DNA of 32,000 nt from Pseudomonadota bacterium (GTDB lineage: Bacteria > Pseudomonadota > Alphaproteobacteria > Caulobacterales > Hyphomonadaceae): NCBI GenBank assembly GCA_038746145.1, contig JBCDKW010000005.1:77032-109031 (forward strand). The letters are read 5' to 3'. This document shows positions 5,267 to 29,499 of this stretch, piece after piece. The position numbers and the translations under genes are program-made. Numbering within the stretch: position 1 is the stretch's first letter; each line of letters begins with the position of its first letter. The notes below the pieces were generated by a model. The model saw only the letters and a list, made by a program, of their open reading frames with translations. It was not told the DNA's origin and made no database searches.

Positions 5267-5968
5267 TTAGGCGGCGACGGCTTCTTTCTTCGGTTTTGGA
5301 TCACGCAGAACATAGCCGCGGCCCCAGACTGTTTCGATATGATGCTCGCCGCCTGTGGCCTGCTGCAGTTTCTTGCGCAGCTTACAGATGAAGACGTCGA
5401 TAATCTTCAGTTCCGGCTCGTCCATACCGCCATAAAGGTGGTTGAGGAACATTTCCTTGGTGAGCGTTGTCCCTTTGCGAAGGGAGAGAAGCTCGAACAT
5501 CTGGTATTCTTTGCCGGTCAGGTGGACGCGCTCATCGTCGACTTCGACTGTTTTCGCATCAAGGTTCACGAGGATGTCGCCGGTGCGGATCACGCTTTCG
5601 GCGTGGCCTTTAGAGCGGCGAACGATGGCTGTTATGCGCGCGATCAGCTCATCTTTGTTAAATGGCTTGGTTAAGTAGTCATCGGCACCGTAGCCGAGTG
5701 TTTTAACCTTCGCTTCAATGTCAGGATTACCAGACAGGATCAGGACAGGTGTGTTTACACGCGCCATGCGAAGCTGTTTGAGGACATCATAGCCGGAGAT
5801 GTCTGGCAGAGAGAGGTCGAGAATGATGATGTCGTACTCGTAGACCTTGCCGAGGTCGACGCCTTCTTCACCAAGATCCGTTGCGTAAATGTTGAAGCCT
5901 GCAGCCTTCAGCATCAGTTCAATCGAACGAGCGACGGCATTGTCGTCTTCAATCAGTAGTACTCTCAT
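5267..5968 (-). CDS. ctrA: Cell-cycle master response regulator CtrA (OmpR-family)
   Basis: Near-colinear identity to Caulobacter CtrA as I remember it: MRVLLIEDD...[14 protein letters not shown]...LDL.LPD.SG.DVL..LR......P..ILSG...[53 protein letters not shown]...[16 protein letters not shown]. Confidence 0.97.
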
Positions 5969-5980
5969 ATTCAGCTCCCC

Positions 5981-6056
5981 GAATCAGTCTGGGTTTATTG
6001 TTAGCTTTCTCGTTAACCATTGTGAATCTAGGTAATGAAGGTTACCACGGATTTAA
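5981..6056 (-). promoter_or_regulatory. ctrA promoter region with CtrA half-site, near-consensus CtrA box and two GANTC (CcrM) sites
   Basis: TTAACCAT at 6013-6020 is an exact match to the published CtrA 8-mer half-site. TTAC-N7-TTAA lies at 6042-6056. GAATC lies at 5981-5985 and 6024-6028. GGGGAG RBS 7 nt before the ATG. Confidence 0.5.
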
Positions 6057-6092
6057 CATTCGGTTTCGAAACGATTTTTTTGTTCATACCTC

Positions 6093-6932
6093 TTAACAAG
6101 CGATCGATTGCCCATTGTCTTCAAGCAGCGTGTGCGCAATGGCAATCGCGTCCTGAATGGGCTGCGAATTTGGGTCCGTAGAGATTAATGTGCGCTGTGA
6201 GCGGATGGCTTCGCGCACGGCTTCATCTCTCATAATCGTTCCCGCAAGAGCCGGGCGGAAGGTCAGGAAGGTCTGACACGCGCGGGCCACAGCTTCGAAG
6301 GTGCGTTGACCGGCAGCGCGCGTTTCACACTGATTGATCGCGACGACTTGTTCGACGCTCGGCGCATAGCCGCGCAGCACTTTCATAAAGGCGTAGGCGT
6401 CTGTCATTGAGGTCGGTTCGTCTGTGATGATCATGACGACTTTGTCAGCCGCACGCGCCAGACGCATGCAGTTATTCTCAATGCCGGCCCCCAGATCGAG
6501 GATGACCTGATCATATTGCAGGGCGAGGGCGGAGAGGCCAGCGGCGAGGCGGGCCACTTCTTCGGAAGAGAGCTCTGCCAGTGCACCGGATCCAGAACGA
6601 CCGGGAAGGACGTCGAAACCACCTGAGGATGATCCGCCGTCGACGGGTGTGACTGCATCTTCAAGTTCGACCCAGCCTGCGATAACGGCTGCGAGGTCTG
6701 TTTCGGGCGCAATACCAAGTTGGACATCGACATTTGCAAGGCCGAGGTCGCCATCGACGAGTAGCGTCTTCTTTCCGGCTTGCGCGAAGGCACTGGCCAG
6801 CGTGATCGACATGAAGGTCTTACCAACACCGCCTTTGCCTGAACCGACGGCGATGATTGAGGCTGGGGTAACGCGGCGCTGCGGTTGCTTGCGCTGCGGG
6901 CGTTCCATGGATTTTGGAAGTAGGAAGCTCAT
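6093..6932 (-). CDS. flhG: MinD/ParA-family ATPase, flagellar number regulator FlhG/FleN-like
   Basis: Deviant Walker A GSGKGGVGKT, then LLVDGDLGLANVD, then Walker B VILDLGAG. The gene is translationally coupled to flhF (TAATG overlap at 6932). Confidence 0.8.
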   Translation of the reverse strand: MSFLLPKSMERPQRKQPQRRVTPASIIAVGSGKGGVGKTFMSITLASAFAQAGKKTLLVDGDLGLANVDVQLGIAPETDLAAVIAGWVELEDAVTPVDGGSSSGGFDVLPGRSGSGALAELSSEEVARLAAGLSALALQYDQVILDLGAGIENNCMRLARAADKVVMIITDEPTSMTDAYAFMKVLRGYAPSVEQVVAINQCETRAAGQRTFEAVARACQTFLTFRPALAGTIMRDEAVREAIRSQRTLISTDPNSQPIQDAIAIAHTLLEDNGQSIAC

Positions 6933-7936
6933 TATGCAGCTCCTCTCAAGGCGACATGGGCAGGCGCATCCTCAGTGAGGAGCTGTGCCAACCGGTTCGG
7001 CGTGGCCGGGATAAGGCCTCCACCGATAAAAGGTGTTACGGCGAGATGCGCGAAAGCGATCCCGGCACTCGACAGGGCAGAGACGATACCGCCTCTCCGG
7101 CGTGTGACGTCGAGTTTTGTGACGATGGCGCGTTTGACGCCGCAGCGGGCAAACGCTTTGGCCATATCGGCCTGATCTTCGGGGTGACCCTCCGCGCTGA
7201 TGACCAAGACTGGCTCTGCTTTAATAACAGGCAGAAGGTCCTGCAGGCTTTGCATATCGTCCTGTTCGAAGGGGACGATAGCGGGCAGGTCGATGACACA
7301 GCGCTGTTTGTTTTCGCGGATCGTCTTAAGGACGCTGAATAGAGCGTCTGGCGTGTTGATGCTTCTGATCTGATCCTGCTCGCGCTCCAGATAGGCCGCG
7401 AGTTGTGCGCCACCTGCTGTGTAGTCTAGGTCCGCGGCGACGGGGAGGATTTCTGATTTTGTGACTGAGGCGCGCCGGGTTAGCTTGGCGGCGACGGCGG
7501 TACGTCCATGCCCCGGAGGGCCGACGAGTACAATGTCGCGTTCCAGACGCGGCGCGATTGGGCGGCAGGTGATGGTTTTGTCCAGACCGGCTGCGATCGC
7601 GCTGGTTGGTTCTGTCTGATGGATATCCGCTGTGAAACCGGCATCGGCAACACGCTCTGCGAAACGCTGGGGCGCGCCGTGCCAGAGCAGGGCGTCGCGT
7701 ACACGGTTGCGAAGTGGATTATCGTTCAGTCTCGGTGCAAGTGGGGCACCCAAGCGTGAAACGTTATCGCCGATCGACGGCACCATGCCGCCCCCAAGCT
7801 TGTCTGTGGCCGCCCTGACCTCGACACCGCCCGGCACTTCGCGCTCTGACAGAATGATGGCGTCATCACCCATCTCGGCGAAGATCAATGCCTTGGCAGC
7901 CTCTAAGGACTCAGCGGCAAACATCTTCATTCGCAT
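6932..7936 (-). CDS. flhF: FlhF-like SRP-type GTPase with degenerate G motifs
   Basis: FlhF-type N-terminus MRMKMFAAESLEAAKALIFAEMGDDAIILSEREVPGGVEVRAA. The NG domain has G1 GPPGHGRT (canonical GxxGxGKT), G3 DLPA (canonical DTAG) and G4 TKLD conserved. GGAG RBS. Confidence 0.8.
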   Translation of the reverse strand: MRMKMFAAESLEAAKALIFAEMGDDAIILSEREVPGGVEVRAATDKLGGGMVPSIGDNVSRLGAPLAPRLNDNPLRNRVRDALLWHGAPQRFAERVADAGFTADIHQTEPTSAIAAGLDKTITCRPIAPRLERDIVLVGPPGHGRTAVAAKLTRRASVTKSEILPVAADLDYTAGGAQLAAYLEREQDQIRSINTPDALFSVLKTIRENKQRCVIDLPAIVPFEQDDMQSLQDLLPVIKAEPVLVISAEGHPEDQADMAKAFARCGVKRAIVTKLDVTRRRGGIVSALSSAGIAFAHLAVTPFIGGGLIPATPNRLAQLLTEDAPAHVALRGAA

Positions 7937-8071
7937 ACAGATACTCCACTTTGATGAAGCGACTGTCGGATGAATTGGTTAACAGAATCTCTCGATTTGT
8001 TAGCTTTTCACAGAATGCTGCGTTTCTGTGGATAAGTTTTTAGCGGGTTTGCTGCTTTTGTTCCTATCGCC

Positions 8072-8329
8072 TCACGCCGCGCGGCGCTGGTCGACGATCT
8101 CGCTGAGTGTGACGCCGAGTTGTCCGTCAGCAATGACCAAACGGCCCCGTGCCATGAGGCGATCCGAGACATAGATGTCGACTTGATCGCCGGTCTCACG
8201 GTCTAGGGCAAGGATATCACCATGCGACATCGCCAGAAGCTCATCGACGGGAATGCGGGCTTCGCCGAGCACAACGTCCACGCGAACAGGGGCATCCATA
8301 AGTGTATTTTCGAGCGCGCGATTGAGCAT
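8072..8329 (-). CDS. fliN: Flagellar motor switch protein FliN (SpoA domain only, 85 aa)
   Basis: VRVDVVLGEARIPVDELLAMSHGDILALDRETGDQVDIYVSDRLMARGRLVIADGQLGVTLSEIV is a typical FliN/SpoA C-terminal domain. Confidence 0.85.
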   Translation of the reverse strand: MLNRALENTLMDAPVRVDVVLGEARIPVDELLAMSHGDILALDRETGDQVDIYVSDRLMARGRLVIADGQLGVTLSEIVDQRRAA

Positions 8330-8395
8330 GAGGTTAACTATTCCGAATCAGTTGGCTGAATTCAAGTGCCCTTAGAAAAGTTGCGGCTTTGTGAA

Positions 8396-8776
8396 TCAGA
8401 CCGTGCTTGCGTCATTAGAAGTTTCAAAAAGATCAGCTTGGCCATCGATCAGCGTTGTCGCGAGGCGCCTGACGTTTTCCAGCGCAGTTCGTCTTTCTTC
8501 TTCGTTGAGGGCGGCTGTGTCGAGATGGCGTGTGAGGGTGATGACCTGCTCCAGTGCGGTTTTCAGCTGGTCGGACAGATTCTCGGCATCCTTTGCGTGC
8601 GCCTTCAACGTGTCGTCTTTCACGAGCGCTGCGCTGCTGTCGCGTGTGTCTGCTAGAAGAGCAGATAGCTCATCGGCCGTCAGAACGATGTCGCTTTTAT
8701 GCTCGGCCGGGCGTTCCGGCGGCGTGAAGTCACTTTGGAAGGTAAAGGGGCTGAGATTGGCGACCTTGCGTTTCAT
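8396..8776 (-). CDS. Short FlbE/FliH-like flagellar assembly protein (assigned by position)
   Basis: 126 aa, coiled-coil-like and acidic. It has an ATGA overlap with fliG and occupies the flbE slot of the Caulobacter fliF-fliG-flbE-fliN order. I did not verify any diagnostic motif. Confidence 0.4.
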   Translation of the reverse strand: MKRKVANLSPFTFQSDFTPPERPAEHKSDIVLTADELSALLADTRDSSAALVKDDTLKAHAKDAENLSDQLKTALEQVITLTRHLDTAALNEEERRTALENVRRLATTLIDGQADLFETSNDASTV

Positions 8777-9681
8777 TCAATGAGATCCTGATCAGGCTTT
8801 GATGCCGATAATAGGTCGCCGCGCCTTGCCAGTTTACGCGCTGTTTTTGCGATTTCTCTGCGGGCCTCTTCGATCTCGGCGCGGCGGAAGGGCCCGCTGC
8901 TTTCGATTTCACTGCGCAAGACATCGCCTGCGCGGGTGGTCATGTTGCGATAGAATGCGTCAGCGGTTCTGGTGTTTGCGTTCTGCAAAGCGATGATCAG
9001 CAGTGCGCGATCCGTGTTTGCCAGCAAGGTCTGCAGGCTACCTGGGTCGAGTGTTGCCAAATCATCAAACGTGAACATGAGCGCTTTGACGCGGTCTGCG
9101 CTGCCCGGCTCGATTTCATCGAGGCTGGCCATCAGGTCAGCTGCATTCGTGCTGTCGACCACATTCATAATCCCAGCGAGGCGATCTGGGCCGGAAGATT
9201 GAACCGAGCTTGCCTGCGTGCGGGCTGCGAAGGCTGTTTCTACTGCTGTCAGGGCCGAGGGATGGAGCGTGTCCATCCGCATCAGGCGATGCAGCGCTTG
9301 CACGGCGGTCTGTTTCGGCAGGTTCTGGAGCGTCGCTGCTGCCGTATGCTCCGGCAGGATTGAGAGCACAAGCGCTGTGACCTGCGGGCTTTCCTGATTC
9401 AGGAAAGTGAGGATTGCGTTGAGCTGATTTGTACCGAGCGTGGACAAGCTGCCTGATGTTTTAGTCGTGTCCTGGTCGCGGGCCATGTCTTTTAGAAAGG
9501 CATCGCCGATACCGGCTGTTTCTTTGTCAGCATCAATCGATTGCATGTCGGCTCTCAGCCGATCTGTTTCGTCAGGTGACAGCAGATCCCAGACCGCATC
9601 TGCGTCGGACCCGAGCGCTTTCATTAGAGCTGCACTGCGCGAAGATCGCCCTGGTGAGCGTGTTGGGGCTGGCAGGGTCAT
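8773..9681 (-). CDS. fliG: Flagellar motor switch protein FliG
   Basis: Middle-domain ESPQVTALVLSILP (EHPQ-type motif), MFTFDDL, and the C-terminal torque-helix region NMTTRAGDVLRSEIESSGPFRR with the conserved Arg residues. 302 aa. Confidence 0.9.
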   Translation of the reverse strand: MTLPAPTRSPGRSSRSAALMKALGSDADAVWDLLSPDETDRLRADMQSIDADKETAGIGDAFLKDMARDQDTTKTSGSLSTLGTNQLNAILTFLNQESPQVTALVLSILPEHTAAATLQNLPKQTAVQALHRLMRMDTLHPSALTAVETAFAARTQASSVQSSGPDRLAGIMNVVDSTNAADLMASLDEIEPGSADRVKALMFTFDDLATLDPGSLQTLLANTDRALLIIALQNANTRTADAFYRNMTTRAGDVLRSEIESSGPFRRAEIEEARREIAKTARKLARRGDLLSASKPDQDLIE

Positions 9682-10316
9682 TGATTATCCTCCTGCATCC
9701 AGCGGCGGATGAGGTTTGCGGATCGCTCAGGCGCTGCATTGGCGAGGGCAGCTGCTTTGCGATGTGAGTTGTCATTTAGGGGCTGAAAGTGCGTGTCTTC
9801 TTTTGTGCCACGTTGGGGTGTTGGAGGCGCTTGCTGCTCCTTCCGCTTCTGCTCCGGGGCCCGCACATAAAGAATAATGAGCGATATTAAGGCGATGCCG
9901 AGCGCGCCCAGTTCTGCAATCTCAAGCGGGGTCAATGCGCCTCGCAGTGTTCCGGCAAAGGGTTGTTGGATGATTTCGAGACGGTCTCGGTCGACTTGAA
10001 ATCCGCGCGCAACGGCAAGGTTTGCGATCATCGGTGCATGTTCTGACGCTGCACCTTCACTTAGCGCCTGGCCATGAATCAGGACGAGCCAGTCATAGCG
10101 GCCATCTGCATTGCGTTGAATTGAGGTTCTGACGCGATCTGGTCCGACAAACGGCTCTATTAGAGCGGTAAAACGATGTTCCTGTGGTGAACCAATCGTT
10201 TCCGTCTGCGGTGGTGCACCGAACAGGGCGAGCGCGCGCAAAAACAAAACCCCCGCCACCATGGTCATGGCAGCGAGGGCAAGGGGTCGAGTGGTGGTCG
10301 ATCTGGTATCGTCCAT
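9678..10316 (-). CDS. Miniature FliF-like MS-ring protein (TM1, one ring-building motif, TM2, FliG-binding tail)
   Basis: 212 aa in the fliF position, with an ATGA overlap to fliG. It has two TM helices. The periplasmic approx. 110 aa resembles the two halves of FliF RBM3 (LIEPFVGPDRVRTSIQ...; MIANLAVARGFQVDRDRLEIIQQPF compared with Salmonella ...EAMGFSDKRGDTLNVVNSPF). The C-terminus NLIRRWMQEDNQ resembles the FliF tail ALVIRQWMSND. Confidence 0.55.
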   Translation of the reverse strand: MDDTRSTTTRPLALAAMTMVAGVLFLRALALFGAPPQTETIGSPQEHRFTALIEPFVGPDRVRTSIQRNADGRYDWLVLIHGQALSEGAASEHAPMIANLAVARGFQVDRDRLEIIQQPFAGTLRGALTPLEIAELGALGIALISLIILYVRAPEQKRKEQQAPPTPQRGTKEDTHFQPLNDNSHRKAAALANAAPERSANLIRRWMQEDNQ

Positions 10317-10440
10317 AAACGCATGCCTTGCCTAATGCTCTTGGCGACCAGCAATAGGACGGTTTGCGTAAACGACGCTTTAACTCTGTTTGAGCGCAAG
10401 GGTTCTCGCGCGCTCAAGTCGTTTTTTTAGGACAGAAATC

Positions 10441-10719
10441 CTAGCGGTACTGTTGAATGCGCGTGGTGCGCAGGCCTTTACGGCCGTGATCATTGTACAG
10501 TTTTGCCCAGCCAGCGAACTCTTCTGCGCTGAGACCGTAGCGATCAAGCGCGTCTTCTTCGCTAAGCAGGCCGCCTGAGACGGCAGCGACAACTTCGGCT
10601 TTGCGGCGTGTGACCCAGCGTGTCACGCCAGGCTTTGGGAGGTCTTCAAGGGTCAGCGGACGGCCATCCGGGCCTTTCACACTGATGGATTGTGCATTCT
10701 GCGCCATGTTTTCCACCAT
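10441..10719 (-). CDS. sciP: SciP-like small CtrA-inhibitory transcription factor (DUF1153 family)
   Basis: RWVTRRKAEVVAAVSGGLLSEEDALDRYGLSAEEFAGW...HGRKGLRTTRIQQYR matches the SciP/DUF1153 pattern. An alternative start at 10707 has a better SD (GGTGGA). Confidence 0.85.
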   Translation of the reverse strand: MVENMAQNAQSISVKGPDGRPLTLEDLPKPGVTRWVTRRKAEVVAAVSGGLLSEEDALDRYGLSAEEFAGWAKLYNDHGRKGLRTTRIQQYR

Positions 10720-11015
10720 TCTTGGTTTTTGGTTAGGCCGCTTTCTGCAGCCATGACCCAGACATACAGGACGCGAATTAAGGCCTGTTTCACCGCGTAA
10801 TTTTTATTTTCATCAAAATTCGACGGGTTCTCAGACAAGCCATTAGGGGACTGTTTGGAAAGCTGTGCCGGAATGGGATTGCCCCAAATGACAGGCGAAT
10901 ATTTGTGCAACGCAACAAAAAATCGCTTTGACCACGTTGTCATAGGCAATCGCCTCTTGATTCCGAGCTCCAAACATGGGCGATTGCGGCAATCTTATTT
11001 TCGGAGCGGGAATCG

Positions 11016-15048: not shown

Positions 15049-16959
15049 TCAGTTCTCCAGAAAGCCTTTGCTTTCTAGCCAGACGAGAATTTGATCTGCC
15101 GCATCCTCAGGGGATTTGTTGACCGTATTGATAACGATCTCGGCATTTTCCGGCGCCTCATAGGGGCTATCGATGCCTGTGAAGTTCTCAATCTCACCGG
15201 CACGCGCTTTCTTGTAGAGGCCTTTCACATCACGTTCTTCCGCAACCTCTAGAGGCGTGTCGACGAAAATCTCGATATATTCGTTCTCTGCCATCAAATT
15301 ACGCGCCATGCGGCGCTCTGATTTGAAGGGCGAAATGAAGCTGACAAGTGTCAGAAGACCTGCGTCGCTCATCAGTTTTGAGACATTTGCAACGCGGCGA
15401 ATATTTTCCACACGGTCAGAATCTGTAAATCCGAGATCACGGTTCAGGCCGTGGCGGACATTATCACCATCTAGCAGGAATGTGTGTTTGCCGAGCGCAT
15501 AGAGCTTTTTCTGTAGCGCATTTGCGATCGTGGACTTGCCTGATCCGGAAAGGCCGGTGAACCATAGCACAGCAGGTTTCTGCGCTTTCTGCTCTGCCAG
15601 CGCATCACGCGTGACGTCCATGGCCTGCCAGTGAATATTGCTCGCGCGGCGCAGGGCGAAATCAACGAGGCCCATTCCGACCGTATCATTGGTGACCCTG
15701 TCAATGAGGATGAAACCACCCATTTCGCGGACACTGTCATACGGATCGAAGGCGATGGGTTTATCGAGCGACAGAGTTGTCACGCCGACCTCGTTCAGCT
15801 CCAGCTCCTTGGCAGGCTTTTCTTCCAGCGTGTTGATATCAATGCCGAATTTCGGACGATTAAGGGTCGCCGGGATGGTATTGGTTCCCATCTTCACGAG
15901 ATAGCGACGCCCTGGCAGCATCGGCTGATCCGACATCCAGAGGATGCGGGCTTGGAACTGGCTTGAGGCTTCTGCAGGGCTGTCTTTCGAAGACAGGACA
16001 TCGCCACGGGAGATATCGATCTCGCGGTCGAGGGTGAGGGTGATTGATTGGCCGGGCACGCCTTCTGGCAGGTCGCCCATCATAGTCACAATGCGCTCGA
16101 CAACAGCCTCTTTGCCGCTTGGTGTGACGCGCAATGTGTCACCGGGTTTGACATGACCGGAGACAATCGTGCCTGAGAACCCACGGAAGTCGAGGTTTGG
16201 TCGATTGACCCACTGGACCGGCATCCGAAACGGCCCCTGATCGCGGCGGTCACCAACTTCGACGGTTTCGAGATAGTCGATCAGGCTCGGGCCGGTATAC
16301 CAGTCCGTATTGCCCTGCGGTGCGGTAATGTTGTCGCCAGCAAGTGCGGACATCGGGATCGGTGTGATATCGACTTCACGGCCAAGCGTCTCTGCGAAGG
16401 CATCGAAATCGGCTTTGATCTGATTGAATGTGTCTTCGCTGTAGTCGACCAGGTCCATCTTGTTGATTGCTAGGACAAGCTTGCGGATACCGAGGCTGGA
16501 GACGATGAACGCATGACGGCGTGTCTGGGTCAGGATGCCTTTGCGCGCGTCAATCATCAGAATGGCAACGTCGGCTGTTGATGCGCCTGTCGCCATGTTG
16601 CGGGTGTACTGCTCGTGGCCCGGCGTGTCGGCGACGATGAACTTGCGCTTTTCGGTTGAGAAGAAGCGATAGGCAACGTCGATGGTGATGCCTTGCTCGC
16701 GTTCAGCCGCGAGGCCGTCGACGAGAAGCGCGAAGTCAATATTCTCACCCTGCGTGCCTGAGCGTTTAGAGTCCGCTTCAAGCGCAGCGAGCTGGTCTTC
16801 ATAGATCAGCTTGGAATCGTAAAGGAGGCGGCCAATCAGGGTGGATTTGCCGTCATCGACACTGCCGCAGGTAATAAAGCGCAGCAGTGATTTGTTTTCG
16901 TGGGCTTCAAGATAGGCGCCCACATCTTTTGCAATCGCGTCGAGGTCTGTCTGGCGCAT
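15049..16959 (-). CDS. cysN: Bifunctional sulfate adenylyltransferase subunit 1 / adenylylsulfate kinase (CysN-CysC fusion)
   Basis: GTPase motifs [14 protein letters not shown] and NKMD in the N-terminal 440 aa. APS kinase P-loop GLSGSGKST and [11 protein letters not shown] in the C-terminal approx. 190 aa. Confidence 0.95.
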
Positions 16960-16962
16960 TTA

Positions 16963-17237
16963 GGGTGTGGCCTCATAAATTTTGCCGCAGCGGGCGGCGG
17001 GATTTTTTGATCCTGCTAGGAGCATCAGCGTAGAAAGCCATTTGGCTTTCAAGCTTATGCGACGCGGCAGGGGCGAAAAAGAGCGGTGCACGGTGTGGTT
17101 CGGCAAAGCCTTCATCCGCTGAGCGGCGGTCTGCAGCGTCAAAGCACTCGATCTGGGCTTGCCCCGCTCTTCATGCTTTTTCTTGCACACCTTGCCCATC
17201 GAATGACCTCTGCAACAAAATTTATGAGTCCACACCC
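16963..17237. mobile_element. 275-bp MITE (non-autonomous element) with about 31-bp imperfect TIRs and a TA target-site duplication
   Basis: The left end GGGTGTGGCCTCATAAATTTTGCCGCAGCGG matches the reverse complement of the right end, GGGTGTGGACTCATAAATTTTGTTGCAGAGG (27/31). It is flanked by TA at 16961-16962 and 17238-17239. Removing the element and one TA restores TAT TTT TAA ATG CGC, a tight cysD-stop/cysN-start junction. Confidence 0.8.
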
Positions 17238-18139
17238 TAAAAATACCCCTCTTGTTTTTTCTTCTCCATTGAAGCGGCCTGGTCGCGGTCAATGACGCGG
17301 CCCTCGCGCTCGGAGCTGGTGGCGAGGAGCATTTCCTTAATGATCTCATCTAGCGTATCCGCTTCGCTTTCCACCGCGCCGGTCAGCGGGTAGCAGCCCA
17401 GCGTCCGGAAGCGGACTTTTTTCATGACAGCGGTCTTGCGCAGATCTTCTGGAACGCGGTCATCATCCACCATAATTTCCGTGCCCTCCCAGTTCACGAC
17501 AGGACGCTCAGCGGCGTAGTAAAGCGGGACAATCTCAATTTTCTCGCGGCGAATGTACTGCCAGATATCCAGTTCGGTCCAATTTGACAGCGGGAACGCG
17601 CGAACACTCTCACCCGGTGCGAGGCGGGCATTGTAGAGGTCCCAAAGTTCGGGGCGCTGATTCTTTGGGTCCCAGCGATGTTCAGCGGTACGGAATGAGA
17701 AGATCCGTTCTTTGGCCCGGGACTTTTCCTCATCGCGGCGCGCACCCCCGAGGGCAGCGTCAAACTTATACTTGGTTAGTGCTGCTTTCAGCGCTGAGGT
17801 TTTCATAATGTCGGTATGAAGCGCAGACCCGTGCGTGAAAGGGCCGACACCGTCTTTTATGCCATCCTCATTTGTATGGACGATGAGATCGAGACCAAGC
17901 TCTTTGGCTTTGCGGTCTCGAAAAGCGATCATTTCGCGGAACTTCCAAGTCGTATCGACGTGCATGAGCGGGAAAGGTGGCACACCCGGATAAAAGGCTT
18001 TCATCGCAAGGTGCAGCATGACCGCGCTGTCCTTGCCGACGGAATAAAGCATTACCGGATTTTCAGTGGCTGCGGCGACTTCACGGATGATGTGAATGCT
18101 TTCCGCTTCTAGTCGATCTAAGTGTGTAAGAGAGGTCAC
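17237..18139 (-). CDS. cysD: Sulfate adenylyltransferase subunit 2
   Basis: [20 protein letters not shown]...MLYSVGKDS (PAPS-reductase-like PP-loop), 300 aa, GTG start. The present stop TAG is built from the TA duplication plus the first base of the MITE. Confidence 0.95.
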
Positions 18140-18313
18140 GCTTGGGAAGGTCCATAAAGAGGTTTTCAGAAGCCCTTCCTATAAACAGTATGCTATATGG
18201 ATCAACACTTTAGCAGCGATGTTTGAGGCTCTATGCGCATAGATTTTAACATTTGGGCACATTGTCGACGGCTATTGAGGGAGACCTCGCCGGATCAATC
18301 CAAATCTGAGGGC

Positions 18314-18565
18314 TTAGCCATTGCGCAATTTGGGTAGTGGAATGTCCACTTCAGCACGCTGATCTTCCCTGATAAGCGCACGTTCCATTTGGATACAAGA
18401 GGCCTTTAGGGCGCTGAGCGAGTGCTGCAGATCCTCGACGAGTAATGGAAATTCGGTTGCCTCGAACGAGCTTGGGTCGCTTGCTATCCGACCTGTGTCG
18501 AAGGCGGCCAGCGTTTTTAGCGCATGTTCCATCATCAGGTGTGACTCGCGCCAATGTCTTTTCAT
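18314..18565 (-). CDS. Hypothetical 83-aa protein
   Basis: An ATG-initiated ORF with no recognisable motif. A perfect CtrA box lies 46-60 bp upstream. Coding status is unverified. Confidence 0.4.
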   Translation of the reverse strand: MKRHWRESHLMMEHALKTLAAFDTGRIASDPSSFEATEFPLLVEDLQHSLSALKASCIQMERALIREDQRAEVDIPLPKLRNG

Positions 18566-18611
18566 GGTTGTATCCCGTTCTCTTATTACGGGAATTATTG
18601 CAATATCTCTA

Positions 18612-18626
18612 TTAAATCAACATTAA
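18612..18626. promoter_or_regulatory. Perfect CtrA box TTAA-N7-TTAA
   Basis: TTAAATCAACATTAA overlaps the thioesterase stop codon and lies upstream of the 83-aa ORF. Confidence 0.35.
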
Positions 18627-19165
18627 GTTGAATTTTTTTGATCTGCTTTTCCGTCAAGAATATCCTGACGCAATTCAATGAAGGTTTTCGTCAGAGGTGG
18701 AGATGTTGTGTCATGGCCAACCGTCTCAAGAACCATTGCCGGATTGACGTAGGAGCGATTTGTCGCCGCGAACTTTGCCAAAACGTTCACAGTCGCATGT
18801 GTGCGGCCATTCAGGATGAAATTGTGCTGTAGGCAAACATAAGTGTCATCCCAGCAAGTGACCTGTGTGTTCAGGTCAAAGCCCTGTGGAAATTTCAGCA
18901 TCTTAGAGATCACGACTTTCTCTGAGAGAATGACGGGAATCCAGCCTCTTTTTCGCATCGTGCCCCAGCAGCCTGAGCGAATGATGAAATTGATCGTTCC
19001 AAGGTCGCTGAAAGAGAAATAGCGGCTGTTCGTGAGGTGCGCGAACATATCCTGATCTGTCAGCCAGACACTGAACTTCAGCTTGTACAGATCTGTGATC
19101 TTACCGTCTTTCTTAGAGAAGATGGCATTCAGAAAAACGCGGAGCAGGCGGAAAAACAGGTTCAC
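18623..19165 (-). CDS. Hotdog-fold acyl-CoA thioesterase-like protein (4HBT_2-like)
   Basis: The pattern WLTDQDMFAHLTNSRYFSFSDLGTINFIIRSG...MRKRGWIPVILSEKVVISKMLKFPQGF...WDDTYVCLQHNF matches thioesterase-family proteins (..D.D...H.NN.RY....DLGR......G......GW.PV......F...L..F). GTG start with an AGGGAG SD, 12 nt after the upstream stop. Confidence 0.65.
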   Translation of the reverse strand: MNLFFRLLRVFLNAIFSKKDGKITDLYKLKFSVWLTDQDMFAHLTNSRYFSFSDLGTINFIIRSGCWGTMRKRGWIPVILSEKVVISKMLKFPQGFDLNTQVTCWDDTYVCLQHNFILNGRTHATVNVLAKFAATNRSYVNPAMVLETVGHDTTSPPLTKTFIELRQDILDGKADQKNST

Positions 19166-19177
19166 TTTGGCACTCCC

Positions 19178-20518
19178 TTATGAGGTGAGTATGTGGGCCT
19201 GCATATCCCGCGCCAGTTGAACATTAAAGTTTGTGATGTGCGAAACAGCCTCATAAGAAAACGTTGCGCCCGTATACCAAGTCCGGTTTTTGCCTTGCAT
19301 CGTTTTTAATCTGCTAAGCAGCCCGTTTCTGATTGCGTCGAAATCGTAGAAAGGGTGATACTTCCACATCTTTTGCAGGATAATATTTGTCACTTCAGCC
19401 CCCTGTCTGCCGACATCATTACGCAAAATTTCTTTCAGTTCGTCGCCACTAAAATCACCGGATAATTGGCCGGATAGGTAAACGTCACCGCCTAAGTCCG
19501 GCTCGTGTCCATCATGCCTTGCGGAAAGAAGCTGCCCAAGATCTGCGCCCGGCACAACAGCCTCCTTATAGCTTTCCGTGTCCACGTCAGTGAACCAATT
19601 GTCGGCTGTGAAAAGTGTTGTCGTGTAGCCGTTCCAGCGGATGGAATCGATCACGAAAGCTTCGTCATCATTCGGAGTGAGGAGTTTTCCGAAGTCATCC
19701 AGCGGTATGGCACAGACAAGCTGATCGAACTCGTAATCCTCCGATCCGTTGATCACGACTTTGATTGTATCGCCGCCGCGATCAATTTCGGTGACTCTTG
19801 CGTTCAGGTGCAGATCGAAATCTGCGGCGACTTTGTTCCAGAATTTCGCCCAACCGATTTCAGGCATCTTCAGCTGTTTCAAGAGCCCCGTGAACAGCAG
19901 GTTCATGTCATTCCAGTTTAGAGCCTGTACGGTCGAGGCTTCGTTCACAAACCCGTAGGCAATATTCGTCGTTGAGCGATGCATAAAATGCTCGATTTTT
20001 CCGAGACGGCGTTCTGCAAGCCAATCACCAATCGGCATGGCAGCCTGTTCGAGGGCCCATTTTGGGGGTTCGGGCGCTTCAAGCGCTTTCTGAAGCTTCG
20101 CTTTATCTGTCCAATACCGATAGAGCTGACTGATCAGATTGGGCCCGGGTCCTTTGCGGATGTAGCGGGTAAATTTGTCGCCTGCAAAACGCTGTTCTTT
20201 CAGGCCGACCATTTTGAGGCCGAACTCTTTCATCCAACGGTTCGTGACCTTGTGTGAAAGGGTCGCGTAGCAGGTCCCCATTTCGACGACTGTATCACCA
20301 TGAATGTATGTAAAAGATTTCCCGCCGACCTGCGGTAGCGCTTCAAAAACAGTAATGGATGAGAATCCTTGCTCTTTAAGCAAGCGCGCAAGACTTAACC
20401 CAGCAGGCCCACCACCAATAATTGCGATTCTATTTTGCTTATCTTGTGTAGGTTGAGTTGCCGTCAAAGCATTCCCACCGGGCGCATTGTAATCACCGTT
20501 ATTCGTGAACTTCATCAT
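19178..20518 (-). CDS. NAD(P)/FAD-dependent oxidoreductase (amine-oxidase / protoporphyrinogen-oxidase-like fold)
   Basis: Dinucleotide-binding RIAIIGGGPAGLSLARLLKEQGF..ITVFEA.PQVGGKS followed by VVEMGTCY. 446 aa. The substrate cannot be inferred. Confidence 0.8.
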   Translation of the reverse strand: MMKFTNNGDYNAPGGNALTATQPTQDKQNRIAIIGGGPAGLSLARLLKEQGFSSITVFEALPQVGGKSFTYIHGDTVVEMGTCYATLSHKVTNRWMKEFGLKMVGLKEQRFAGDKFTRYIRKGPGPNLISQLYRYWTDKAKLQKALEAPEPPKWALEQAAMPIGDWLAERRLGKIEHFMHRSTTNIAYGFVNEASTVQALNWNDMNLLFTGLLKQLKMPEIGWAKFWNKVAADFDLHLNARVTEIDRGGDTIKVVINGSEDYEFDQLVCAIPLDDFGKLLTPNDDEAFVIDSIRWNGYTTTLFTADNWFTDVDTESYKEAVVPGADLGQLLSARHDGHEPDLGGDVYLSGQLSGDFSGDELKEILRNDVGRQGAEVTNIILQKMWKYHPFYDFDAIRNGLLSRLKTMQGKNRTWYTGATFSYEAVSHITNFNVQLARDMQAHILTS

Positions 20519-20618
20519 GCAGTCTCTATAGCAAATATTCCGAAATTGTTACCATGGAAAATGCAATTAGAACGCCAGTTTTGGCTGTTATTAAGCCTAT
20601 TGTGGCACGACGTTATAA

Positions 20619-22340
20619 ATGAGTGCTGTCCGTGATCCATCTGCAACAGTTTTTGCATTATTCGCGCCTTTTCCAAAGGCACAGAATGGGCTGCAGGCGG
20701 ATATTTACCTGAGACAACAGATCCTTCTGACAAAACAGCAACTTCAGATGGGTCTGATCAATACTTTGGCTGCACTACTGGTGGGTGTGACGGCGTGGGG
20801 ATTTACGTCCAATTATACGGTCGGCGGCTGGACAGCTTTGGTCGCTTTTATCGGGATATTTCAGGTCTACGCATCGTGGCGCATGAGAAACAGCCCTGAG
20901 CCAACATCTGTATCGGGTAATTACCTGAAGAAGGCTGAATATGCATCGGTTATTGCTGGAATGCTCTGGGGATCTACAGGCTGGTTGTTCGGTTACGCCT
21001 CTGATGATGCTAATTTAAGTTTGTTCCTCTTCGTGATGCATGCGGGGATGTCGGCCGGTGTTGCCAGCATTATCACGCCTCTGCCGAGACATGTGATCAG
21101 GTTTGCAATCCCGTGCCTGCTGGCGCCTATGCTGGCGGTTTTCACTTATAGTGGCGATTTTGCATTACCAGTTACGATTATGAGCGTTCTGCTCCTGATG
21201 GCGCTAACCAATAGTAGCATTATGAGTTATCGTCAGTTCAAAGCCTCTATTGCAAGGGCTTACGAAACGACGGAAGCAAAGAATAATCTCTCTAATGCGA
21301 TCAATGCTTCGAACGATGCGTTTGCTTTGTACGGTCGTGACGGGGAGCTTGTCCTTGCCAATAAGCGCCACCAGGGTTCCTTCTCTGCAGACTTGAAGCG
21401 GGAGTTTTTCGGATCTGTCACTGATGTGGCCCGCACAGTTCGCCATAAGGATTTATGGCTGCTCAGATCTGTCAGAGATGTTGAGTCTGGCGGAACGGTC
21501 ATCGTGCACACGGATGTCAGCGCTATGAAACTGCGTGAGCGCGAATTGGTTGAAGCGCGCCGTGAAGCGGAGGAAGCCGATCAGGCAAAGGGACGGTTCT
21601 TGTCGACGATGAGCCACGAACTCAGACAGCCGCTCCACGTGATTATTGGGAATTCAACCCTGATGTCGACGGGGTCTCTGGTTGAGTTGGAACCGAATGA
21701 AGTTCAGGAATATGCTGATGACATTCATGCAAATGGGCAGCATTTGCTCCGGCTGATTGACGACATCATCGACTACTCGAAAGTCGGTCTTGGACGATTT
21801 ATGCTCAATCCTGCCCGAATTGATTTCCGGTCCATGATTGCGAAGTCTGTTTCACTTGCAGCGAATTTTGAAGGTATTTCAGACTTGTCCGCTCTTGACG
21901 TAAGCGTCAGTTCGAATCTGAGAGATCTCTATATTGATGAGTTTGTGGCGCAGCGCATTCTGATATCGCTACTCTCCAATGCATTCCGCCATGCGGGAGA
22001 CGACCCGCGTCTTGTGATCAAAGGACGTCTCGATGGCAAAGGGCGGCCTTACATTTCGATTCGGGACTTTGGACCGGGTCTTTCCGATGATGATCTGGAG
22101 CGGGTCTTTGAGCCGTTCTATCAAAAGGACAACTCTCTGAGCCGCGAAACCAGCGGGGCAGGGCTTGGTTTGACGCTGTGTCGTCATCTGGCGCGTCTTC
22201 AGGATGGCGATGTGATTTTGAAAAGTCGTCTCGGAGCCGGGACAAGTGCAACGCTGATCTTCCCCACTGGCAGTTATATCGCACCGGATGCCTACGGCGT
22301 AGCCGATCAAGACGCTGAAACGATAGCAGAGACGGCCTAA
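20619..22340 (+). CDS. Membrane sensor histidine kinase (6 TM, PAS-like, HisKA, HATPase_c), no cognate regulator adjacent
   Basis: Six N-terminal hydrophobic helices. H-box FLSTMSHELRQPLH, N-box LLSNAFRHAG, G1 IRDFGPGL and G2 GAGLGLTLCRHLA. Confidence 0.9.
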   Translation: MSAVRDPSATVFALFAPFPKAQNGLQADIYLRQQILLTKQQLQMGLINTLAALLVGVTAWGFTSNYTVGGWTALVAFIGIFQVYASWRMRNSPEPTSVSGNYLKKAEYASVIAGMLWGSTGWLFGYASDDANLSLFLFVMHAGMSAGVASIITPLPRHVIRFAIPCLLAPMLAVFTYSGDFALPVTIMSVLLLMALTNSSIMSYRQFKASIARAYETTEAKNNLSNAINASNDAFALYGRDGELVLANKRHQGSFSADLKREFFGSVTDVARTVRHKDLWLLRSVRDVESGGTVIVHTDVSAMKLRERELVEARREAEEADQAKGRFLSTMSHELRQPLHVIIGNSTLMSTGSLVELEPNEVQEYADDIHANGQHLLRLIDDIIDYSKVGLGRFMLNPARIDFRSMIAKSVSLAANFEGISDLSALDVSVSSNLRDLYIDEFVAQRILISLLSNAFRHAGDDPRLVIKGRLDGKGRPYISIRDFGPGLSDDDLERVFEPFYQKDNSLSRETSGAGLGLTLCRHLARLQDGDVILKSRLGAGTSATLIFPTGSYIAPDAYGVADQDAETIAETA

Positions 22341-27255: not shown

Positions 27256-27423
27256 GCGCGGCCTTTAGCGCGGACGCTGGGGATTCGGAAGTGGGTTTGT
27301 TGCGTGACACTAAACGCAACTTGAAATTTTGTTAAAATTCTTTTCTACCACTAAAAGATGTGTTATCGGTCATCTCTATCGCATTGAATATTGTGAGACT
27401 TAAAGAATTGTGGGGTGGTTATC

Positions 27424-29499
27424 ATGAATACTATTGATCCAAGGCAAAAGCAGGCGAATGAGATACGAAAGCAGGCGACTGAAATCGCTTCGAGTCGTGT
27501 TCGGAAGCCGCATCTACGTAATGGTGAAGAACAAGACTTGGGCGGTTATGATCCGAACTGTCCTCATGTTCGCCAACGTCAACGCGGTGGAGCGATCGAA
27601 AATAAAATTCCCTATCTGACTTTCTCGAAAGGGTTAGCGCATGATGACGAAACGGGACTCCCGACCCGCGCGAGCGTGCTTAATTTGCGTAAGGCAATCA
27701 ACCAGAAAAAAGTCGACGACTTCAATGATATTGGCATTGCATTTAAAGATACTTCAAACAGGCGGTTTTTCTCTGTAGCTGGCCAAACGTCTATCGCTAA
27801 TGGTTTCGTCGTTATTAATGGGCGCGCGCATCGGCGCTGGGAGGCGCCCACAGCAGGATATGTCTTTGATTTGCAGGGGCCAGATGCTCAGGCAGTTACA
27901 ATGCCGCCAGCGCCGCGCGCCTTTCCGCGAGCGGGTAGAACAGAACCCGATGCCGAATTGGTTGCCGATATGGCTGAGGTATACTGGTTTGGTCTATTAC
28001 GCGATGTGCCATTCTCTCACTTCAAAAAAGGGCGAAAGAACAAAGGGAATTATCCGGCGACTCCGAGTGGCGTGGATGTCGGCGATGCTATCAATTATCT
28101 GAAGAAGTTGGATTTCTACAAAAAAGATTTTCCGCGATATGGTGCTGTCAAAGGCAAAAACTACGGCGCGGCCTGCAGTGTTCGCCCTCACGCTGATACT
28201 TTAAGCGCGCAAAATATCTTCAGAGGTCAAACGCCGGGTGATCAAATCGGTCCGTACATCAGTCAGTTTCTACTTATCGGGAATGATGGTGCAGGTGGGG
28301 CCGATGATAAAGCGACGGATGGCCTTATAAAGTACGGTTCTATTCGCATTGATCAACGTGTTCGTGAGGCAAAAGCGCATGTTGATTACATGACTGTCTG
28401 GAATGAGTATCTGGATGTGCAGGACGGCGCGAATGTCTCGCGAACACAGAAGTTTGTATCAAACCCAAATTCAGCTGGTGGAGCTGGTGACAACTTTCGC
28501 TTTATTGCAACACCTCGCGACTTAGCGACATATGTCCACTTCGATGCGCTTTACGAAGCGTATTTAAACGCGTGTCTCTGGCTCCTTTCTGCTGGAGCAC
28601 CACTTGATCCTGATTTCAAAAAAGTGGCGGGCGAGCCTGATGGCGCGGTCGAAGGTTTTGCACTTTATGGGGGACCGCACATTCTGTCGCTTGTAACAGA
28701 AGTTGCGACGCGTGCGCTAAAAGCTGTAAGGTATCAGAAGTTCCAAAATCATTTGCGTCTACGTCCTGAAGCTTTGGCAGGTCTTCTAGCTGCCGAACCT
28801 GACATAGCAAAGCCGACCGTAGACCCGCTTATTGACGCGTTGAAAGCACCGAACGGTCGGAACGTCGTTGATTTATTGGCCAAAGTTCAGTCGCACAATC
28901 AGGCAGTTAACAGCAAAAATCGCAAGAAAATGGGGCAGTATCTGGCCGCTCAATCACAAAATCCGCTTGCCGCTCGTGACGATCTTCCATTGCTGCCAAT
29001 GGCCTTTCCTGAAGGTTCTCCCATGCACCCAACTTACGGGGCTGGGCATGCAACCGTCGCCGGAGCATGTGTGACGATGCTGAAAGCTTTTTTTGATGAA
29101 GATGCAGAGCTTCGCATTGATAAGGACGGTAAACACATTGCGATTGCGCCTAATGACCCGCATTGCGATGGGAGTGTACCATTTGCCTATGAAGCAATCG
29201 CAGATGGCACGAGCCTGTGCAATGTGTACTCAAAGAAAGCGGACGCCTTAACTGTCGGCGATGAATTGAATAAGTTGGCCTCAAATATTTCCATTGGGCG
29301 CAATGTGGCCGGTGTTCACTATTATTCTGATTATATCCAAAGCTTGGTCATGGGCGAAGAGATTGCAATCGGTGTCTTGAAGGAACAGGCCGTGACTTAC
29401 ACTGGAACGGAAGATTTAAAGATGACTTTTGAATCGTTTACTGGAAAGTCGGTCCAGATCAGGAATCCTAATCCGCATATATCTATACTGAGTGCGTAG
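27424..29499 (+). CDS. Vanadium-dependent haloperoxidase-like protein (PAP2 superfamily, bromoperoxidase type)
   Basis: The three PAP2/V-HPO motifs are in the correct order: KAVRYQKFQNHLRLRPE (K..RP), PMHPTYGAGHATV (PSGH-like) and GRNVAGVHYYSDY (R..H...D). The N-terminal part follows the V-BPO pattern (NGEE...FSKGLAHD...EVYWFGLLRDVPF). There is no signal peptide. I prefer the ATG at 27424 to the GTG at 27415. Confidence 0.8.
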   Translation: MNTIDPRQKQANEIRKQATEIASSRVRKPHLRNGEEQDLGGYDPNCPHVRQRQRGGAIENKIPYLTFSKGLAHDDETGLPTRASVLNLRKAINQKKVDDFNDIGIAFKDTSNRRFFSVAGQTSIANGFVVINGRAHRRWEAPTAGYVFDLQGPDAQAVTMPPAPRAFPRAGRTEPDAELVADMAEVYWFGLLRDVPFSHFKKGRKNKGNYPATPSGVDVGDAINYLKKLDFYKKDFPRYGAVKGKNYGAACSVRPHADTLSAQNIFRGQTPGDQIGPYISQFLLIGNDGAGGADDKATDGLIKYGSIRIDQRVREAKAHVDYMTVWNEYLDVQDGANVSRTQKFVSNPNSAGGAGDNFRFIATPRDLATYVHFDALYEAYLNACLWLLSAGAPLDPDFKKVAGEPDGAVEGFALYGGPHILSLVTEVATRALKAVRYQKFQNHLRLRPEALAGLLAAEPDIAKPTVDPLIDALKAPNGRNVVDLLAKVQSHNQAVNSKNRKKMGQYLAAQSQNPLAARDDLPLLPMAFPEGSPMHPTYGAGHATVAGACVTMLKAFFDEDAELRIDKDGKHIAIAPNDPHCDGSVPFAYEAIADGTSLCNVYSKKADALTVGDELNKLASNISIGRNVAGVHYYSDYIQSLVMGEEIAIGVLKEQAVTYTGTEDLKMTFESFTGKSVQIRNPNPHISILSA

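Follow-up and report, generated by a model that had tools for sequence, protein, structure and literature searches.

The window analysed here, a 32,000-nucleotide stretch of contig JBCDKW010000005.1 from the Pseudomonadota assembly GCA_038746145.1, carries on its minus strand the sulfate adenylyltransferase genes cysD and cysNC, with a small inverted-repeat element lodged between them. The cysD stop codon and the cysN start codon stand 277 bp apart, at a junction where related genomes show a one-nucleotide overlap. Two further lineages have the same 275-bp element at the same site, in copies that differ from one another far less than do the synonymous sites of the genes on either side. The rest of the window has the gene content of an ordinary core chromosome, with Hsp33, RNase H, flagellar genes, PPDK, purL and others. 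Its 32 kb hold neither a transposase gene nor a tRNA, and no Rfam family reaches the gathering score there. The best named matches to the window CysD come from Hyphomonas and Henriciella; judged by these CysD homologues, the window belongs with the marine Hyphomonadaceae. Exact look-ups of the window CysD and of protein P0005 returned no identical record.

Besides the window, the element is present in the same place and orientation in GCA_038747305.1 (L001; CysD 98% identical to that of the window, cysD-cysN gap again 277 bp), and in the same place in an ENA metagenome contig (L008), where cysD is a partial gene. The empty loci are GCA_039030935.1 (L002; CysD 97%), a Logan contig (L003; CysD 100%), Hyphomonas sp. 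FCG-A18 (L012, CP137142; CysD 95%) and the Logan contigs L013-L016 (CysD 94%). Three occupied loci against seven empty ones make this a presence/absence polymorphism at orthologous sites. Each of the seven empty sites has TTCTAATG, with stop and start codons overlapping by one nucleotide in the context TTCTAATG. Because seven related Hyphomonadaceae loci have the uninterrupted overlap, the 275-bp element is an insertion, a genuine and exact one, lying in the TA of the cysD stop codon; the TAATG overlap is the ancestral state. The reverse history, an ancestral spacer lost in the other lineages, is ruled out, since all outgroups share the identical overlap. The initial annotation had read a precise 275-bp insertion at the cysD stop/cysN start junction from the window itself; the relatives bear this out, and an empty site, which it proposed to look for in sister strains, exists among them.

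A protein search with the CysN N-terminus, intended to recover further junctions, obtained mostly short distant fragments; the 83-aa neighbour led to a contig that ends before the junction. Cluster look-ups gave singletons only. The L008 contig, at only about 3x coverage, shows damage in both genes: an in-frame stop near codon 139 of cysN (34-1944), and a 65-nt frame-breaking deletion in cysD (2545-2745). The lesions may have arisen in assembly, or the operon may really have decayed once the element was in place.

On the minus strand the junction in the window reads GAG GGG TAT TTT TA/G GGTGTGGACTCATAAATTTTGTTGCAGAGG ... CCGCTGCGGCAAAATTTATGAGGCCACACCC /TA A ATG CGC, the slashes marking the ends of the element. 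Its terminal inverted repeats (TIRs) have 31-nt arms that match at 27 of 31 positions, and TA dinucleotides flank them on both sides, all as previously annotated. With the flanking bases included, a repeat search gives arms of 35 nt that are 89% complementary; within the 32-kb window a 22-nt terminal motif is present at these two places and at no other, where shuffles lead one to expect 0.01 occurrences. TA is its own reverse complement, and the two flanking copies are therefore indistinguishable from an extension of the inverted repeat. The stop codon of cysD is now a TAG (17239..17237) made of the target TA and the first G of the element, and the protein is unaltered, being 100% identical to the CysD of the empty-site relative L003 (protein P0002); here too the first description was correct.

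The element carries no gene that any search could name. Its reading frames match no Pfam family and no transposase remnant, a six-frame translation has no match among 5.8 billion predicted proteins, and neither at the gathering threshold nor at E<=10 did an Rfam search produce a credible match; there is no terminator-like site on the sense strand and no sigma-70-like promoter. The earlier claim of an element without a transposase thus stands, and at 275 bp it also has the small size expected of a MITE (miniature inverted-repeat transposable element).

The flanks depart slightly from those of an empty site. Two changes, one in the last Phe codon of cysD and one next to the cysN start (Table 1), are private to the occupied alleles and present in three of three; with the two of them the inverted repeat grows from 33 to 35 nt, and the TTT codon also makes a U-run ahead of the UAG. 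Deleting the element and one TA consequently yields TTTTAAATG, where the real empty site is TTCTAATG: a C>T change and an extra A separate them, and the 'perfect' reconstituted junction claimed at first does not hold. Alternative boundaries and duplications of 0-5 bp (3-bp TNA, 4-bp YTAR, 5-bp Tn7-like, TTAA) were tried and rejected, as none yields the empty site without extra mutations. Quasipalindromes are recurrent hotspots of template-switch mutation (PMC7202029), and the two private changes may be palindrome-extending template-switch events of this kind (‘quasipalindrome correction’).

Table 1. Features at the cysD/cysN junction, in window coordinates
Feature	Position	Strand	Remarks
cysD (sulfate adenylyltransferase subunit 2)	17237..18139	-	NCBIfam NF009214 CysD, 525 bits, full length
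cysNC (fused sulfate adenylyltransferase subunit 1 / APS kinase)	15049..16959	-	NCBIfam NF004035 (PRK05506), 1022 bits, profile 6-630 of 632; start ATG 16959..16957
Inserted element	16963..17237	-	275 bp, GGGTGTGG...CCACACCC on minus strand; in 3 loci, missing from 7
Inverted-repeat arm, cysD side	17207..17241	.	31 nt in element + TA + two flank bases
Inverted-repeat arm, cysN side	16959..16993	.	31 nt in element + TA + two flank bases
TA, cysD side (candidate target-site duplication copy)	17238..17239	.	Empty sites have a single TA here
TA, cysN side (candidate target-site duplication copy)	16961..16962	.	From the sequence
Flank change private to occupied alleles	17240..17240	-	Last Phe codon TTT vs TTC in 7/7 empty sites
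Extra A private to occupied alleles	16960..16960	-	TAAATG vs TAATG; extends inverted repeat
Native cysN Shine-Dalgarno inside cysD end, AAGAGGGG	17246..17253	-	277 nt upstream of AUG linearly; 4 nt from TIR stem base
GAGG in cysN-side arm	16971..16974	-	11 nt upstream of cysN AUG; paired in predicted stem
+1 reading frame relative to cysD	16960..17242	-	Open across element; ends at TAA abutting cysN ATG

The copies are more alike than their surroundings allow. Between the window and L008 the element differs at 3 of 275 positions (1.1%), against a synonymous divergence (pS) of 0.22-0.27 in cysD and cysN; between the window and L001 it differs at 23 of 275 (8.4%) with no insertions or deletions, against a pS of 0.59-0.67, and other intergenic DNA of this pair is only about 63% identical, with gaps. 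Over these two independent comparisons, the rate of change in the element is some 1/8 to 1/20 of that at synonymous sites. The 23 substitutions are spread fairly evenly along it, a pattern that resembles neutral change since a recent ancestor. Over 30 nt to either side, third codon positions of window and L001 differ at about 50%, right up to the element edges, and the L001 flanks carry the markers of their own lineage to within 6 nt (TAC vs TAT, AGA vs CGC). The window and L008 share a tract of about 367 nt (17257 to ~16890), reaching about 60 nt into cysN, that has only three differences, all within the element, against about 5.5% elsewhere; this points to recent homologous recombination having carried the occupied allele on that tract. 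No comparable low-divergence tract is found for the window and L001.

The distribution of the element also disagrees with the history of the genes. The local cysD/cysN tree, (((window, L008), L003), L001), L002, (L012, L013), has occupancy +, +, -, +, -, -, - in the same order. That is, the empty-site L003 is nearer to the window (cysD pS 0.37, total cysD divergence 8.9%) than the occupied L001 is (total cysD divergence 16.5%). The low divergence of the copies, together with an empty relative that is nearer than an occupied one, excludes passive vertical inheritance of a neutral insertion. The discordance leaves two readings: transfer between lineages, whether of the occupied allele or of the element, or constraint on the element. 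This combination of a single site, low divergence and disagreement with the tree is real, and it is unexplained.

The account we prefer, with confidence about evenly balanced between acceptance and doubt, supposes that in one marine Hyphomonadaceae sub-lineage the ancestral cysD-TAATG-cysN overlap received, at its TA, a 275-bp non-autonomous, MITE-like TIR element. To judge from the low divergence of the copies, the occupied allele would have moved between lineages more recently than those lineages split. The route may have been recombination that stops at heterology, or site-selective transposition. In the first case, heterology would halt branch migration at the edge of the element, and local alleles would overwrite the flanks up to that boundary.

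One alternative is that the element is a MITE of the ordinary multi-copy sort, moved by an IS630/Tc1-mariner transposase, and that it inserted once at a random TA and was then inherited passively. The TIRs, the flanking TA, the small size, the lack of any open reading frame (ORF) family and the presence/absence polymorphism are all what such an element would show. MITEs are defined by dispersed copies and a parent element, and these were looked for widely. TIR patterns were scanned in exact form and in a degenerate form with 19 fixed bases, which diverged copies would escape. Among one genome for each of 185,579 species (the GTDB species representatives, which include neither occupied metagenome-assembled genome, as the copies in these would have matched), the exact pattern had 0 matches and the degenerate pattern 4 single matches, in unrelated phyla. 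The degenerate scan of 241 million metagenome records (JGI/ENA) gave one paired match, which is the cysD/cysN junction of L008, and three single matches. The single matches (L004-L007, L009-L011) lie inside unrelated coding sequences, lack a partner arm, and encode KI[DE]E[AT]TP-like peptides, for example at the N-terminus of LpxD (L009, L011) or of Lon; as read from these sequences, they are codon-level coincidences, not copies of the element. A TIR scan of IMG/VR found none; blastn of the element against PLSDB plasmids and phage genomes found no match, and blastn of each arm against plasmids gave chance-level matches only. The 32-kb window and 120 kb of related loci contain no further copy. 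No insertion sequence (IS) sharing these TIRs appears in the genome, metagenome, viral or plasmid collections, the rest of the occupied genomes lying outside the searched set. In the collections covered, then, the element is found only at the cysD/cysN junction, in three lineages.

An advocate of the ordinary MITE may answer that the other copies lie in the occupied genomes, and a small family may indeed be confined to them, or that they have diverged too far for the 19-base pattern. The passive half of the hypothesis fares worse: it predicts about 22-67% divergence between copies where 1-8% is observed, with no insertions or deletions; the empty L003 nests between occupied lineages; and the TA duplication model is one base off. 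A TA duplication alone is not diagnostic of the IS630 and Tc1-mariner families, and as TA is the sole basis for an IS630 assignment, that assignment is not established. The element has the TIRs, the small size without a transposase and the presence/absence polymorphism of a MITE; it is MITE-like, not a proven IS630-type MITE. The name given to it in the initial annotation is therefore right as to anatomy and polymorphism, and goes too far as to dispersed copies and a TIR-sharing parent, neither of which was found in the collections searched. As a full explanation, the ordinary MITE is unlikely.

A second alternative, to which we give a similarly low probability, locates the slow change of the element in its function. 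A single old insertion would now serve as a structure for cysN translation or stability, under purifying selection, and L003 would have lost it by hairpin-stimulated precise excision. Constraint would account for a rate of about 1/8 to 1/20 of the synonymous one without insertions or deletions, and for the identical site and orientation in all carriers; both genes are still selected, and at the base of the predicted stem the Shine-Dalgarno sequence, the stop codon and the AUG come to lie side by side. The structure itself does not look like a selected RNA. The sense strand folds with z = -6.75 relative to shuffles and the antisense strand with z = -6.78; since both fold equally well, the fold reflects the palindromy of the DNA and not strand-specific RNA design, and a sense-specific RNA fold is ruled out. 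A closing TIR stem of 31-35 bp is predicted in the window and L001 copies and is kept by RNAalifold across the three copies; in the interior, one compensatory and five wobble-compatible pairs stand against eight broken ones, and the 3' half of the interior is predicted to fold one way in the window copy and another in that of L001. The substitutions, being even, leave no conserved cores, and Rfam has no match. Finally, the empty site of L003 is exactly ancestral, which under the excision scenario means that the two flank changes must have arisen twice.

Constraint on a protein fares no better. The +1 frame relative to cysD is open in three of three copies (shuffling gives P(open) = 0.023), and within it lies AGAGG-N7-ATG, the ATG being at 17199..17197; mechanically it forms part of a 129-aa ORF, 16960-17349 (-), that starts within the 3' end of cysD and runs in the +1 frame through the element to the TAA. 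A dN/dS of 0.61 and the lack of homologues rule out a conserved small protein in this frame. Because the constraint tests look unlike those of a constrained RNA or protein, recent spread is favoured over constraint, as far as sequence comparison can tell.

Least probable of all is a site-specific mobile element that recognises the conserved end of cysD or start of cysN, in the manner of Tn7 at glmS, and entered the window/L008 and L001 lineages independently: it would suit the same position and orientation amid flanks saturated at synonymous sites (the copies differing by only 8%), flanks that are lineage-typical to within 6 nt, and the lack of any other site in the collections searched, but no recombinase or transposase is known for the element, DDE elements of low specificity typically have just this combination of TIRs and TA, recurrent mutation is needed to explain the shared flank changes, and only two or three independent data points exist.

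The preferred account, an inserted MITE-like element whose occupied allele spread recently, must also accommodate a working operon. In the window and L001 both genes are intact, with pN/pS (the ratio of nonsynonymous to synonymous differences) of about 0.008-0.04; for cysNC against the occupied relatives the value is 0.02-0.04. Both cysD and cysN are under strong purifying selection; from pN/pS of 0.01-0.04 and the intactness of both genes it follows that cysN is still expressed. An uncoupling of cysN translation, as stated in the initial annotation, is not borne out by these values, which mark the gene as still functional. The element would be co-transcribed within the cysDN mRNA, and the predicted TIR stem would then bring the cysD UAG and the native Shine-Dalgarno sequence beside the cysN AUG at the 3' base of the stem. 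Such hairpin-bridged initiation or re-initiation may be the likeliest reason that the insertion is tolerated, a proposal we hold at somewhat less than even confidence. Other routes can be imagined. A ribosome stopping at the UAG would melt the first ~12 pairs of the stem and free the GAGG of the cysN-side arm; RNase III might cut the 31-35-bp stem, as described for Correia elements (PMC2229807, PMC2649163), and expose the same GAGG; or ribosomes might translate through the element in the +1 frame. Once the stem has been opened or cleaved, GAGG is a possible substitute ribosome-binding site.

The last of these routes has a known counterpart. In the +1 frameshift site of prfB, a Shine-Dalgarno-like run is followed, after 3 nt, by a slippery run and then a stop codon (PMC12421855). 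The end of cysD has the same geometry in the window and L008, AGGGG-UAU-UUU-UAG, with the +1 frame open as far as the cysN AUG; the likeness is no more than a resemblance. The TTC>TTT change makes the last Phe codon slippery, and UUU is private to the occupied alleles. The differences are that the cysD stop is UAG-G, not UGA-C (PMC12421855), that the corresponding run in L001 is weaker (AGAGGGC-UAC-UUU-UAG), and that the +1 product is not conserved. A bolder scenario, which we regard as improbable, combines these elements: a junction-specific unit would repeatedly enter, or be kept at, the cysD/cysN overlap, and its carriers would compensate by an RNA device, in which the TIR stem rejoins the ribosome-binding site to the AUG, and/or the AGGGG-UAU-UUU-UAG site directs +1 frameshifting through the 92-codon frame to the TAA at the cysN AUG, restoring coupling.

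Several observations weigh against the preferred account. The junction reconstituted from the window, TTTTAAATG, is not the real empty site. There is no second copy and no parent in the collections searched, so that the multi-copy property of a MITE is unproven. The lineage-typical flanks of L001 would be hard to obtain by ordinary homologous recombination. The translation mechanism proposed to accompany the insertion has no support from covariation, at one compensatory pair to eight broken ones. The lesions in both L008 genes could mean that the insertion is harmful.

Small palindromic elements within operons are familiar from other bacteria, and the comparison is instructive in both directions. 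The Correia/NEMIS elements of Neisseria are small and non-autonomous, with TIRs of about 24-26 bp and TA termini; they often lie in operons and are co-transcribed (PMC2229807, PMC2649163). Folded into a long hairpin, their RNA can be cut by RNase III, which alters expression of neighbouring genes (PMC2229807, PMC2649163). The cysD-cysN element resembles them, on what its sequence alone reveals, in its TIRs, its TA termini, a predicted stem of more than 20 bp (31-35 bp) within an operon, and the lack of a sense-strand terminator. It differs in length (275 bp, where Correia elements have 100-155 bp), in number (no second copy found, where they have hundreds per genome) and in showing no sequence similarity to them. 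With RUP of Streptococcus pneumoniae and other IS630-mobilised MITEs it shares the TA target, the TIRs and the lack of coding capacity (PMC2229807); the TIRs of RUP, however, match those of the resident IS630-Spn1, whereas no IS with the TIRs of the cysD-cysN element was found in the collections searched, and the element has no sequence in common with RUP. The ERIC/IRU sequences of enterobacteria are imperfect palindromes inserted where intergenic DNA is transcribed; as part of the same transcript as their neighbours, they change how stable the flanking mRNA segments are, and many have an open frame (PMC2229807). Here the likeness is to an imperfect palindrome with an open frame between the genes of an operon; ERIC sequences, in contrast, are 127 bp long, multi-copy and from another clade, with no sequence similarity to the present element.

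Other parts of the window deserve brief mention. G+C content falls to 0.48-0.50 in 18000-22000, against 0.55-0.60 elsewhere, across the genes upstream of cysD (a 4HBT thioesterase, an amine-oxidase-like flavoprotein and a histidine kinase); as this segment is syntenic in L001, L002 and L012, it is probably not a recent island despite its low G+C. A 694-aa ORF at 27415-29499 (+), with no Pfam or NCBIfam match and a lower local G+C of 0.49-0.51, lies between purL and a DUF418 gene; these two are adjacent in L002, and the ORF therefore looks like a strain-specific gene insertion. Its GSPMHPTYGAGHAT and RNVAGVHYYSD we take to resemble active-site motifs of the PAP2 / vanadium-haloperoxidase type. 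At its 5' end, in 27447-27485, stand two tandem near-repeats of 18-21 nt (AAAGCAGGCGAATGAGAT, AAAGCAGGCGACTGAAAT). A flagellar-type cluster at 5267-10316 (-) comprises FliG, an SRP54-type GTPase (FlhF-like), a MinD/ParA-like ATPase and an OmpR-type response regulator; ORFs without a family match, at 8396-8776 and 9678-10316, are among its neighbours, and a 700-bp non-coding gap follows at 10317-11015.

If the element at the cysD/cysN junction is only a new low-copy MITE, it is an ordinary case of a hairpin element tolerated in an essential operon. Its value lies in the discordance: copies at one site that are about ten times less diverged than the neighbouring synonymous sites, set in flanks typical of each lineage. 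It may thus serve as a test case for the spread of an insertion between diverged bacteria, whether by recombination arrested at heterology or by site-selective transposition; for quasipalindromes that reshape their own flanks; and for translational coupling that would survive a 275-nt structured spacer between Shine-Dalgarno sequence and start codon.

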